From Amphiscolops sp. MND2022 (Eukaryota), in NCBI GenBank assembly GCA_964187785.1, contig OZ076409.1, positions 11,596,001-11,660,000 on the forward strand: a stretch of DNA of 64,000 bases. The letters are read 5' to 3'. The translations under genes and the position numbers were made by a program. The notes under the pieces were generated by a model, which saw nothing but the letters and a program-made list of their open reading frames with translations, was not told the origin of the DNA and ran no database searches. Of this stretch, positions 4,796 to 13,597 are shown in pieces (positions within the stretch are counted from its first letter, which is position 1; the number at the start of each line of letters is the position of its first letter).

Positions 4796-5578
4796 TGTAA
4801 CGGCAAGCTCTGGTACAGCAATATGAACCGATTTTGCAACTTTGACATGTTCAGAAATTTTGTCAAAAATTCTAATTCGATGTGTGACGTGGCACTGAGC
4901 ATGTGATTGCTATTTTCGCTGTTTCTACGAAATTGGCAAGTACTTCGACAACAAAGAGCAAGAACGAGCAAAAACACGGGCGCGCCGCCATGACAGAAGC
5001 CAGAGACGGCAAGAACATCCGAATATAGACTCTTTTTGAGGTGCTAACACCGGTTTTATCGATTTTCAGCATTATGCTACCCTATGTAGCAGAAACCGGT
5101 AAAATGAGTCTTTTCGCTTAATTGTCCTTGTTTGGTGCTTGGAGCCCCTGCGCCCCAGCTTTCAAGCTGTGTGGTTTGCCATTCCGATGTGTGCTTTGAT
5201 GTATTTCTGCTGGATTTAGTTGTTTGAACTAGCGCCAGCGCTAGTTTGTGCAATTTTAGATCTTATTCCCCATTTTAGATATTTTACCGATATCAGGTGG
5301 AAGATGGAAATTTACACTGTTTATTCTTGGCATTGTTTTTTAAGGCTGTCTAAACGGTGGTCCCAGGCAAACGGCCGAGACGGATGCCCGTTATTCTCAG
5401 CAGTTACAGACTGGGACCAGGCCAGAGAGCGTCCTACAAGACGGTTCCCCCGCCTTGGGACTGGCTCCTTCGGAAGGAAAATGAGCTAGGGCCGCGGAGA
5501 TCTAAGTCCCAGATTATATTCGCTGTTCTAGTTCCTCCACTCTACGTTGCGGTTCAAGCGCCTGCGCTTATCGTTACA
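4796..5578 (+). repeat. 5' LTR of the non-autonomous element
   Basis: TGTAACGGCAAG...CTTATCGTTACA; matches 12812-13597 with roughly 15-20 differences counted by eye. Confidence 0.92.
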
Positions 5579-5593
5579 TAGAACCTCATTTTT

Positions 5594-5610
5594 TGGCGAC
5601 CACAGAGGGA
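5594..5610 (+). promoter_or_regulatory. Primer-binding site, tRNA-Arg-like
   Basis: TGGCGACCACAGAGGGA resembles the complement of the metazoan tRNA-Arg(TCG) 3' end (TGGCGACCACGAAGGGA, from recall). It lies 15 nt downstream of the LTR end. Confidence 0.65.
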
Positions 5611-6685
5611 TCGTCTTGGGAGGCTTTCCCTAGCGGTTTTTAAAAGATCTGGCCCCCTGGTGTTTGACGCCAAGAACGATTGGACTCTGGAAGGAGACGT
5701 TTACCCAGAGTTTTTCCAAATTTTTTAGATGTTATGATGTTATATTTTGGTATTTTTCCAGTCTTCAGGGGATTTTTCCAAGTACCTTTGGTATGTTTTG
5801 ATAACAGGTACTTGTTGACAGATATCGTTTAAAATTGCAAGGTTCCCATCAGCGTGTCCTCTTTTTTGAAGCGTAGTGGACAGTAGCACGTCGCTACTGG
5901 TGTTTAACAGGTTTTTCTAGCTGTTTTCAGTGATTTGCGCTTATGTACGAGAGGTGAAATTGATGGTTGAACCACAATCCATCCGACCGATAAATGAGCC
6001 GAAACGAGTGTTCCCGACTCACCTCTCTCATTTCTACTACAGACGTCATAGAAGAATGGGATTTGGTGGAAAGGTAGAGCAAGCACTGACGTTGCCGACG
6101 GTGCAAACCGTTTTTCTCTGGCTTGTCTGGATGTTGCGAAAAACGACGGCGAAGGTACCACCCCTCAATCCGGAAAAATCGACATTCTGGAGTGTGGTAT
6201 GAAAAATTTTTTCGATTGCGTATTTTTTGATGGGGAATCGTTTGGTCAGGTTAGTTCTTCCGTATTGCAACTCAGTGTGTGCTTTTGCAGCTGTTTTCAG
6301 TGAGAAAAGTCCGATTTTAGGTGCAAAAGTAGAAAAAACGTTGTTTTTTGCATTTTTCAGTGTTTTTCGTGGTACGAGCGCGAGCGCTCAAAGTATTAGC
6401 CACAGAAGTTGAAAAATTGGTTGTAAAGTAGCTCAAGACCTCGAGAGTGCTGCTACATAACGTACCGAGTACCAGAAAGGCAGTTGGAGTCCTTTTTGAG
6501 ACGTGTTTTGTATGAAAAAAACCGGTTTTTAGCGAAATTGGCAAAAAACCACTAAGAATTGCTACTGGGAGAGTGCTGGCTTGTGATGTAATTGCCTCTT
6601 CCGTGCTGCTATTAGTTTGGGGCACACTCCACAGTACCAAAAATAGGATTTAAGAGAGTTTGTAACGTTTTCTTGGTGAGAACAG

Positions 6686-7057
6686 GTCGAAAAACCTTGA
6701 TTTTTGACCAGTTTCAGGAGTGCCAGAGTGCATCATTAAAACCTCTGGGGCACTCAGTGTTTTCGAGACCTGGGAGCCCGCGCGCTCTCATTTTCTGTTT
6801 TTGTAGTAAAAATAACGCATTTTGGTGAAAACCGTGTGCAAAAATTCCTTTTCAGTGCTGAGAAAAGTTGAAAAACCTTGATTTTTAGTCAGTTTCAGGA
6901 GTGTCTGAGTACACAATTAAAACCCCATGGGCACTCTGTCTTTTTGTTAGCTAGCAGCTTCCGCGCTCTAATTTTCTGTTTTTATCATAAAAATAACGCG
7001 TGGTGGTGAAAACCGCGTGTAAAAACTCCCATTCAGTGCTGAGAAAAGTGGAAAAAC
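6686..7057. repeat. ~181-bp tandem duplication inside the LTR element
   Basis: GAAAAACCTTGATTTTT..CAGTTTCAGGAGTG...CGCGCTCT.ATTTTCTGTTTTT...GGTGAAAACCG...TTCAGTGCTGAGAAAAGT occurs twice in tandem. Confidence 0.88.
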
Positions 7058-7489
7058 GCACTGAATTTGATCAATTTTCCACAAAACCGGACTGTCTCTG
7101 AGCTAGGGTCGGGTCATCGAATCCTGATCTCTAGCCAAAAAGTGGTTGCATTTTCGTAACCATCACCAAAATTAACGTTAGTTCCGAAAATTTGGTGAGC
7201 GTATCGGTCACCAAAGTCGAGAAAAGCTCTCTGACGTTTCGCCTTCAGAGAAGCGTAAGAGGACCGAAAAAATCCAAAACTGCAGGACTGCCAGTGCCTT
7301 ATACCTAACGGGCACAACCAATTGAGGGTTTATCCCAGTGCTACGGATAGTGGGGCAACACGTTGGTCCCATTTTGCTCGCCGTATCACTTCCTGAGATG
7401 ATCCTCTTGGTCAAATTGTGAAAAAAGTAGTCAAAAACAGTGTTTTTTCGCGTGTAACGTCCATAAGGAGTCGAAGCCTCAAATAAGCG

Positions 7490-11129: not shown

Positions 11130-11143
11130 TATCAACTACGAAA

Positions 11144-11665
11144 TTGCTACCGAAGTTGCTGAAAGACTCCAATGACCCACCTTTTGCTGAACGTGGGCTA
11201 CGGGATTTTATTCAGGTGGACCCGCCAGTCTTTATCAATTGGTTGCCTGGTGGTTCAGCTAAAACTCGACCAACTGGTCATAGACGTGGTCGACCACCGC
11301 GCACAGACTATGAGCACTCATGGCAAAAGGTTTTCTTGTCCCTTTATGATGGACGTCGCCGTGGCCGTCCACCACGCCAAGTTTTACCATGGTTGCTCCG
11401 ACCGAAGGGACATAGGCGTGGCCGTCCTCCGAACAACTATTCCAGTCTTGAGACAGACCCAGTCTCCACAGTTTTCTTTATCGGATTTCCTGATGCTTCA
11501 TGCTTGTTGCACGTCCTGCTGCTATTGGATGGTGATGTCTATCCAGTCCAAACCACACTCCACGTCTTTTCAAAGGGGGAGGAGGTGTCGTCAACGCGTA
11601 ATTTTTCCTGCTGCACTTTTATGTCAGGCATTCAATTTTGTCCATTCTTCACTATCCTCATGTGA
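11144..11665 (+). CDS. Protein with three AT-hook-like RRGRPP motifs
   Basis: GHRRGRPPR, GRRRGRPPR and GHRRGRPPN. The ORF-track start is TTG, so the true start is unclear; it may continue the upstream ORF via a frameshift. Confidence 0.5.
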   Translation: MLPKLLKDSNDPPFAERGLRDFIQVDPPVFINWLPGGSAKTRPTGHRRGRPPRTDYEHSWQKVFLSLYDGRRRGRPPRQVLPWLLRPKGHRRGRPPNNYSSLETDPVSTVFFIGFPDASCLLHVLLLLDGDVYPVQTTLHVFSKGEEVSSTRNFSCCTFMSGIQFCPFFTILM

Positions 11666-12772
11666 AAGAGGGTGCTCAACGACTAAGGCCCGGGGAGTCA
11701 ACTAAGGCCCGGGGAGCCTCAGTTGAAGACAAACACCCCTACACTCATCAACTCAATTGGATAACGTCCGGAGGATATCACTACGTTTGGTAATGCATAC
11801 CTTGCAGCGTGATGTTCTTGTTGGAGCAGTTTTTTCTGCAACTTTGTTTCGTAATTTTAGTAGTCATGTAAACGTACGTCGTGACATTTTTGTTTTTAGT
11901 TTTATTTGAGATGTTTGAATTCAAATACTTCTGTTAATTCAATAAGTAACACAGAAACTCTAAAAAAACTCTACATGAATCTCTTCACCCGAAAGGTGCT
12001 ATTTTTGTTTTTGCGTAAATTTTTCCAAAGATTTCCAGTAGTTTCCTTCAAATTTCAACGTGGTATCCAGAAAAAAAAGCTCGCGCGCTCCAGATGTCAA
12101 AATTCCAAGATTTTGTCTATTTTTGGCTACTTTACTCCAGTGCTTATGCATATGAGCAGTTCGTAGTTTGCTTCTGATGGGTTCCTTGACAGATGCTACT
12201 GAACTCTACACCGGTATGGAGCTGCACATCAGTGCGTGTTGCCCAAACCAAGCTTAATTGTAAAAAAAGTATCAAAGAAACAGCCTGTTTTCCTTTTAAA
12301 CAGTGGTTTTTCCATTGAAAAGAAGTTTTAGCGAGAAGAACTTTTAACTGTGCTGCAAACTGAAGTTTTATTGCCGTGGAAAAGATGTTTTTGCTGAAAA
12401 CCACGTGCGCTTTGGAGCGCTCCGTAAAAAGAAATTTTAGACGTCCAAAAACCAAAGTGCTAGCAGGATCCTATTTAGACTTTTGCAGAAAACTCGTGCT
12501 AAAAAAGTGGTGCTTTTTTGATTGATGTATGGAATCTTGGATTTGACCAATTTCAAAGTGCATTTTTGAGTACTGGTTTTCTAGCTCTCGAGCTAGCTCT
12601 GTTTCAACAGTTTCTGGACGATGCAGGTTCTCTGGATGGCTAGGAGCAAGACCTCATGATTGCCCAATCAGCAAAAGATGACAGTGCCACTGGACCCTTG
12701 CAACATCACCAGTTTGAGACACCCCCGTGGATTGCACTCATGATGTGGCGATGTATTCAATGCCAGCCTCTC

Positions 12773-12811
12773 CGCATGACAGGGACGTCATGCATAAAGC
12801 CCGGGGAGTGA
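12773..12811 (+). promoter_or_regulatory. Hairpin and polypurine tract before the 3' LTR
   Basis: GCATGAC-AGGGAC-GTCATGC stem-loop, then GGGGAGTGA immediately before TGTAAC. Confidence 0.7.
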
Positions 12812-13597
12812 TGTAACGGCAAGCTCTGGTACAGCAATATCAACCGATTTTGCAACTTTGACATGTTCAGAAATTTTGTCAAAAATTCTAATTCGATGTG
12901 TGACGTGGCACTGAGCATGTGATTGCTATTTTCGCTGTTTCTACGAAATTGGCAGGTGCCAATTCGACAACAAAGAGCAAGAACGAGCAAAAACACGGGC
13001 GCGCCGCCATGACAGAAGCCAGAGACGGCAAGAACATCCGAATATAGACTCTTTTTGAGGTGCTAACACCGGTTTTATCGATTTTCAGCATTATGCTACC
13101 CTATGTAGCAGAAACCGGTAGAATGAGTCTTTTCGCTTAATTGTCCATGTTTGGTGCTTGGAGCCCCTGCGCCCCAGCTTTTTAGCTGTGTGGTTTGCCA
13201 TTCCGATGTGTGCTTTGATGTATTTCTGCTGGATTTAGCTGTTTGAACTAGCGCCAGCGCTAGTTTGTGCAATTTTAGATCTTATTCCCCATTTTAGATA
13301 TTTTACCGATATCAGGTGGAAGATGGAAATTTTCACTGTTTATTCTTGGCATTGTTTTTAAAGGCTGTCTAAACGGTGGTCCCAGGCAAAGGGCCGAGAC
13401 GGATGCCCGTTATTCTCAGCAGTTACAGACTGGGAAAAGGCCAGAGAGCGTCCTACAAGACGGTTCCCCCACCTTGGGACTGGCTCCTTCGGAGGGAAAA
13501 TGAGCTAGGGCCGCGGAGATCTAAGTCCCAGATTATATTCGCTGTTCTAGTTCCTCCACTCTACGTTGCGGTTCAAGCACCTGCGCTTATCGTTACA
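12812..13597 (+). repeat. 3' LTR of the non-autonomous element
   Basis: TGTAAC...GTTACA, near-identical to 4796-5578. Confidence 0.92.

Follow-up and report, generated by a model that had tools for sequence, protein, structure and literature searches.

What kind of element has two near-identical long terminal repeats (LTRs) around an interior that holds reading frames of its own and no retroelement enzyme? The question is raised by an 8.8-kb insertion at 4796-13597 in a window of 64,000 nucleotides from Amphiscolops sp. MND2022 (GenBank assembly GCA_964187785.1, contig OZ076409.1, positions 11,596,001 to 11,660,000 of the forward strand), the window being the whole stretch of DNA that was analyzed. 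An initial annotation of this DNA saw a large retrotransposon derivative (LARD) with no gag or pol that kept an independent cargo of its own. In this report, we find that the insertion is an LTR retrotransposon in structure, with two long direct repeats and a polypurine tract (PPT), and that it is probably a non-autonomous internal-deletion derivative of a Ty3/gypsy family, the open reading frame (ORF) of which is mainly a relic. This is largely what the annotation had set apart as its contrary case, a deletion derivative of a gag/pol element, except that the derivative is old and amplified and not a one-off.

The reading frame and its gag-derived front

The supposed cargo, a coiled-coil-like and an AT-hook-like protein at first taken to be separate, is a single ORF (10356-11662, on the + strand, as are all features below unless stated otherwise), which in this copy is broken by a stop codon at 10659-10661 and a frameshift near 11020. 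Its front part (10356..11059), acidic and mostly disordered with one long helical stretch, is the pre-capsid N-terminal region of gag. It is followed by a basic tail (11060..11662), which in sister copies continues the frame of the gag stub and which bears the motif G[HR]RRGRPP three times, at 11276, 11351, and 11408. Of 488 candidates in a search with the "AT-hook" part, 190 protein clusters passed E ≤ 0.01; the best 120 of these are proteins of 276-464 amino acids (aa) from ENA assemblies and share 71-96% identity with the query. In all 120 listed relatives, one frame holds both the coiled-coil and the AT-hook part, a count biased by a query that was itself the tail and by searched proteins that were all at least 274 aa long. 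Both lesion sites of this copy are read through in 54 of the 120, and 34 of the 120 reach at least 420 aa. Sister ORFs show many different internal junctions, and their N and C termini vary widely between copies. In a library of 1.84 billion representatives there were 154 matches, the longest of the 150 listed being 529 aa, and the 27 listed relatives examined in their entirety appeared to be copies of this element or of its Gag, or fragments of either. The family is thus large and amplified, with many copies. Pfam gave no match above cut-off for 50 family proteins, the ESM Atlas gave no usable match for P0018, and no related loci were found among viral or metagenome contigs; the single-sequence fold of P0270 was poor (pLDDT 39.6) and gives only a hint of disorder plus a helix.

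Two side observations concern the tail and the family. A second + frame over the tail is also open (11163-11705, 180 codons), and several sister copies end in it; two + frames open over at least 145 codons occurred in 0.0002 of crude shuffles. The family relative P0129 has a C-terminal part that matches 45021-45128 on the − strand at 49%, probably another repeat beside P0129's own copy.

The origin of the front part is revealed by longer proteins. The first ~275 codons of the ORF are 75-86% identical to the N terminus of Ty3/gypsy-family Gag-protease(-reverse transcriptase [RT]) polyproteins, which removes the notion of an independent cargo for the coiled-coil-like part. Among the library matches, P0125 continues into a different domain, and a search with that domain found 223 proteins among 2076 candidates, many of them with zinc knuckles or a retroviral-type protease. 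When long proteins (785-2240 aa) were searched with the element's ORF, 4 of the 8000 scored matched, all to the gag part. P0390 (1236 aa, 5 members) is 83% identical over 10356-11021 and 75% over 11006-11188, and for P0389 (1102 aa) the figures over these two segments are 82% and 86%; in both, a capsid comes next and then an aspartyl protease of gag type that passes the Pfam cut-off. P0391, which is 71% identical over 10749-10916, contains RVT_1 (E 7e-33), with Ty3 RT as its best PDB sequence match (E 6e-51); the retrieved helper proteins end within RT. Relatives that bear capsid, protease, or RT together with the shared gag segment therefore exist, and the element has the homology expected of a Ty3/gypsy derivative, to a Gag-Pol with a capsid, a protease, and then a Ty3-type RT.

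The domain that follows the pre-capsid region is a capsid. Among 47 aligned relatives, 26 have PNMA and 22 have zf-CCHC. A wide fold search placed retroelement capsid folds in all of its first 19 rows—Arc, copia, PNMA2, Rous sarcoma virus (RSV), PEG10, Ty1, Ty3, murine leukemia virus (MLV), and foamy—at Z 5.3-7.9, hence below 8 and for a model of mean pLDDT 56.9. Foldseek returned nothing for this capsid model at E ≤ 0.001, and the profile of alignment A3 had no sequence match in the PDB. The element matches the A3 profile at pre-capsid positions 8-220 only and has no capsid in its six frames; a capsid was found in 1 of 268 ORF relatives, namely P0125. When 123 capsid-bearing proteins were compared with the window's ORF, 17 matched at 70% or more, 5 at 27-41%, and 101 had no match. 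In the older Gags P0294 and P0302, the first residue aligns to 10383, similarity of ~34% runs through 11059, and the capsid follows immediately. Because the similarity to these older Gags ends where the capsid begins, the deletion junction lies at the pre-capsid boundary of gag, and because the junction is common to subfamilies 53-68% identical to P0018, it is old. The initial annotation's "no gag" must therefore be corrected, 10383-11059 being the pre-capsid N-terminal region of gag, and ~60% of the ORF is gag-derived. The Pfam check that it had proposed for the interior found no domain in the element's ORFs; the gag stub was found by homology to Gag polyproteins; domain scans miss such a relic because pre-capsid gag regions have no Pfam model.

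An F-F-K-G-G stretch (10419-10433) was considered as a relic PPT and rejected, since it is itself the conserved start of older Gags. Separately, Pfam sees no zinc knuckle past the capsid in the young helper Gags P0389, P0390, P0391, and P0281, and ~62%-identical relatives have one.

Architecture of the element and probable exchange with helpers

The outer limits of the element are exactly 4796-13597, and its LTRs are as near-identical as was first reported. The 5′ LTR (4796..5578, 783 bp) and the 3′ LTR (12812..13597, 786 bp) both have TG...CA ends and differ by 16 substitutions (7 transitions and 9 transversions) and one 3-bp indel, which gives a Kimura two-parameter (K2P) distance of 0.021; "young" is a relative term here. 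Of the two priming sites claimed for the element, the PPT (12796..12811) stands, albeit as a weak tract of 12 purines in 16, with the same motif preceding the LTR of a second copy. The other is a primer-binding-site (PBS)-like site (5594..5611), 15 nt 3′ of the LTR, the complement of which ends in CCA and may resemble the 3′ end of a tRNA-Arg. It starts with TGGCG, a 5-mer with a count of 3 in the 7.2-kb interior, so that its chance of occurring within 20 nt of the LTR is ~0.008. The first 10 nt of the spacer between them (5579-5593) end in CA, which makes an alternative LTR end possible, yet they are absent from the 3′ LTR. The second copy (18091..19355, − strand) is real; it is an older, 5′-truncated relative that aligns to 12250-13562 at 74% overall, with a 3′ region at 81%, the PPT, and an LTR at ~78%. 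The locus is not host DNA between two solo LTRs but, as proposed from the start, an amplified, non-autonomous LTR element that would need mobilization in trans.

Between the PBS-like site and the ORF lies a long non-coding leader (5612..10355), within which no stop-free frame longer than 115 codons is wholly contained. It includes both repeat arrays that had been noticed, a tandem repeat of 181 bp x 2.1 at 81% identity (6677..7057) and a diverged one of ~730 bp x ~3 at 58-61% identity (~7500..9550, limits approximate). The last 90 nt of the leader are common to the Gag-protease protein P0389 (87%), and the stretch 9790-9873 matches the start of 31 of the 120 sister ORFs. The enzyme-free character of the interior was borne out: Pfam scans of ORFs and six-frame searches showed the element to be without RT, RNase H, integrase, protease, capsid, or zinc knuckle, and the capsid, protease, and RT of the helper proteins have no remnant in its six frames. 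None of the element's 17 ORFs (among 26 scanned) had a Pfam match above cut-off; the same scan detected RT, RNase H, and integrase in a neighboring gypsy. The one Rfam match, of 25 bits where the cut-off is 79, is at the level of chance, and no tRNA gene was found. Purine tracts also occur inside the element (11572..11716), where a PPT-like run followed by TGT (11572-11588) precedes two occurrences of the terminal-PPT motif (11689 and 11708). These twin motifs sit 1.1 kb upstream of the real PPT and, with the 11572-11588 run, are possibly traces of earlier 3′ ends.

Comparison with young helper proteins points to exchange in the 5′ part of the coding sequence. In young Gag-Pol proteins, the element's module, including the first ~45 tail codons (to 11188), precedes a further gag start, which is shortened. 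In other young Gags the short start is the sole one, some sister ORFs open with it before changing over to the element's module, and many young Gags have a pre-capsid region that is either short or rearranged. These arrangements probably arose by template switching between copackaged RNAs of the element and its helper, a process discussed for exchange between those partners of wheat Sabrina/WHAM/Angela that are autonomous and those that are not in the relevant portion of PMC9744471.

Origin of the element and rival explanations

The explanation that we favor is as follows. An old deletion would have taken out everything from the start of the capsid onward and fused pre-capsid gag to a downstream coding stretch, the basic tail, which is probably from the 3′ part of the ancestor, and the derivative would have retained LTRs, PBS, leader, and PPT. 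The tail ends at the PPT-like run at 11572-11588, and pol often ends at such a run. RNA driven by the LTR would depend on the helper at each stage, on its Gag for packaging, its RT for copying, and its integrase for insertion, as is established for non-autonomous LTR elements, the helper presumably having the same LTR and leader. The derivative would thereby have amplified, and it would continue to exchange 5′ segments with intact relatives via template switching. The gag stub and the tail are most likely passengers. The neighboring gypsy at 30686-42077 was considered as the helper and rejected, as its LTR is different and tblastn against the element gave nothing below E 0.3.

Several points weigh against this explanation. 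First, because the young Gag-Pols look recombinant, the 75-86% match alone gives no direction of descent, which rests on the older Gags at ~34%. Second, the sharing between element and helper covers 10265-11188 only and is at the protein level, the LTR and PBS lying outside that interval. Third, the tail is absent from proteins of 785-2240 aa (8000 scored, with no integrase-bearing helper protein among those retrieved). Fourth, a spacing of 15 nt between LTR and PBS is unusually far. Fifth, the flanks of the element show no perfect target-site duplication (TTAA and TAAA, a 3/4 match), by contrast with the neighboring gypsy, which has a perfect 5-bp duplication. Finally, the tail shows signs that suggest past selection.

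This last point bears on a rather unlikely alternative, which shares the same origin but in which the fusion of gag stub and basic tail is a working accessory protein. The helical gag part might join helper Gag while the Arg-Gly-Arg-Pro repeats bind the element's own RNA or DNA, or translation itself might favor packaging in cis, by analogy with mouse intracisternal A-particle (IAP) 1-delta-1, the precedent described in part of PMC6466679. The old junction, which is in frame in the diverged subfamilies, argues for such a protein, as do the 54 listed copies that are open across both lesion sites and the 34 that are long. The three G[HR]RRGRPP repeats differ by 13 synonymous versus 2 non-synonymous codons, and in 46 of 148 diverged relatives G/R/P positions in the motifs are 83% identical compared to 66% for the tail's other G/R/P positions (p 0.003). 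The synonymous excess and this conservation imply that the tail was coding at some time, although selection on the motifs may predate the deletion. A fully open 180-codon frame is also rare in shuffles (0.0018). The R-G-R-P core occurs three times in the tail, but Pfam's AT-hook gave no match at E 0.1 and 0.01, and short motifs are easily missed.

What speaks against a working fusion is chiefly the pattern of substitutions. In the gag stub, substitutions shared by at least 4 copies are not more conservative than singletons (60 and 42 of 120 copies; p 0.96 and 0.80), the same test in the tail gives p 0.18 (118 of 120 copies), and shared substitutions in both are near a neutral simulation. In a capsid control (38 of 38; shared by at least 3), shared changes are more conservative (mean BLOSUM +0.95 versus −0.64, p 7e-5). 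These tests used proteins only, with runs of 4 mismatches in 5 removed before counting, and are weak for disordered proteins. Among 11 diverged frameshifted copies, conservation of the main frame is scarcely above that of the other frames (0.57 versus 0.53, p 0.43); for all 23 of 268 copies with both frames, the values are 0.72 versus 0.63 (p 0.018), a difference confounded by the many matches that cross frameshift junctions. Close copies thus carry no signal of purifying selection on the ORF, whereas the same test registers one in the capsid. Moreover, the termini of the ORF vary widely among copies, and this young copy is already broken twice. The claim that the element "keeps an accessory gene" is consequently unsupported for the gag part and meets mixed signs in the basic tail.

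A more elaborate version, which we regard as unlikely, is that the parasite long kept an adaptor protein, made of the gag pre-capsid helix and the three nucleic-acid-binding Arg-Gly-Arg-Pro repeats, for entry of its RNA into helper particles, and that its 5′ module invaded helper gag by recombination to give a helper-parasite swarm in an invertebrate genome.

It is distinctly unlikely that this copy is a chimera of two insertions, whether by ectopic recombination or an assembly join. The lack of a perfect target-site duplication, the transversion-rich LTR differences (9 of 16), and the abundance of the family would fit a chimera; however, identity between the LTRs is 98%, every part is collinear with the sister ORFs, and the flanks fit a 4-bp duplication with one mismatch. 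Even if the copy were chimeric, the nature of the family would be unchanged. Lastly, a LARD-like element with one or more unrelated captured accessory genes, the initial annotation's view, is hardly tenable: although the ORFs have no Pfam family, no usable ESM Atlas match was obtained, and no source was traced for the tail past 11188, gag makes up ~60% of the ORF, which refutes capture for the N-terminal part, and the 150 listed relatives are all at most 529 aa, those examined in full resembling the element or its Gag, and 50 family proteins had no Pfam match above cut-off.

Neighboring features and known systems

Several other features lie in the window. A full-length Ty3/gypsy of another family (30686-42077), which presumably resembles elements of acoel worms, has a perfect 5-bp target-site duplication and ~1.55-kb LTRs that hold the start of a gag-like ORF. 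Its RT, RNase H, and integrase are identified by Pfam and interrupted by stops, and there is a weak dUTPase-like stretch (E 0.014). It also contains an antisense ORF (38553-39245, 231 aa) and a sense ORF (39756-40634, 293 aa, running into the 3′ LTR), neither with a Pfam match. A decayed copia-type element (~47871-52453) has LTRs that are 86% alike and, spread over several frames, motifs of knuckle, integrase, RT, and RNase H that follow the copia order. A 265-codon ORF (57382-58176), which we take to resemble a non-LTR ORF1, contains a coiled-coil-like stretch as well as a PHD-like match that is weak and below cut-off (E 0.019). Near-perfect inverted repeats or hairpins (79-100%) at 596-1443, 3180-3425, and 4000-4085 are like miniature inverted-repeat transposable elements or foldback elements. 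N runs of 200 bases occur at 28576-28775 and 61766-61965, both outside the element.

The element is real and ordinary in kind. Animals are already known to harbor non-autonomous LTR elements that are large and contain tandem repeats internally. Literature searches found no description of its family, which is not proof of absence; acoel genomes are characterized as AT-rich and LTR-rich in the part of PMC9911081 that concerns them. Our findings are nevertheless of use in repeat annotation, since this gag relic accounts for hundreds of "unknown protein" calls in public assemblies, and they offer an instance, with many members, of a non-autonomous family exchanging sequence with its helper.

LARDs go back to Kalendar 2004, as cited in passages of PMC6431247 and PMC6022998. 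With them, and with non-autonomous Ty3/gypsy derivatives, the element shares its large size (8.8 kb), retained LTRs, PBS-like site, and PPT, lack of any enzyme domain, and amplification. Under the operational rule worded in a passage of PMC6022998 (no detected domain and at least 2 kb), it counts as a LARD. In the strict sense of no coding sequence, worded in a passage of PMC3286476, it does not, since its gag-derived ORF (10356-11059) is open through the tail in sisters. Unlike LARDs, it retains ~235 gag codons, and its helper lineage can be named by homology. LARDs are described in a portion of PMC6431247 as captured DNA between LTRs, and the element is not of that make-up. The initial statement that LARDs are mostly described from plants is fair, yet 38 non-autonomous LTR families whose interiors contain tandem repeats are reported from Culex quinquefasciatus in the relevant sections of PMC3286476, with lengths of 3-14.6 kb in the tabulated rows covered. 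These are likewise non-plant, kilobase-sized, and non-autonomous, with internal tandem arrays, and they have a PBS; they have no coding sequence or known master copy, whereas the element here has a gag remnant and gag-pol relatives.

TR-GAG (in the corresponding part of PMC6022998) and the wheat Sabrina/WHAM/Angela partners (in that of PMC9744471) resemble the element in keeping gag-derived coding sequence and in sequence swaps with their autonomous partners, whether through template switching or through gene conversion. The difference is that a GAG domain is kept there, whereas the element stops before the capsid and cannot supply a particle shell. Mouse IAP 1-delta-1, in the extract of PMC6466679, is also non-autonomous and successful, with a gag-led fusion ORF made by internal deletion, and a cis effect is reported for it. 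However, IAP is a vertebrate endogenous retrovirus from which 1.9 kb was deleted, whereas the element here lacks the capsid and all enzymes and its 3′ fusion partner, the tail, is not matched to pol in long proteins; a cis role would here be one of analogy. If the fusion protein were functional, the element would provide a non-vertebrate counterpart of the cis effect of IAP 1-delta-1 and would show a parasite competing for the particles of its helper.

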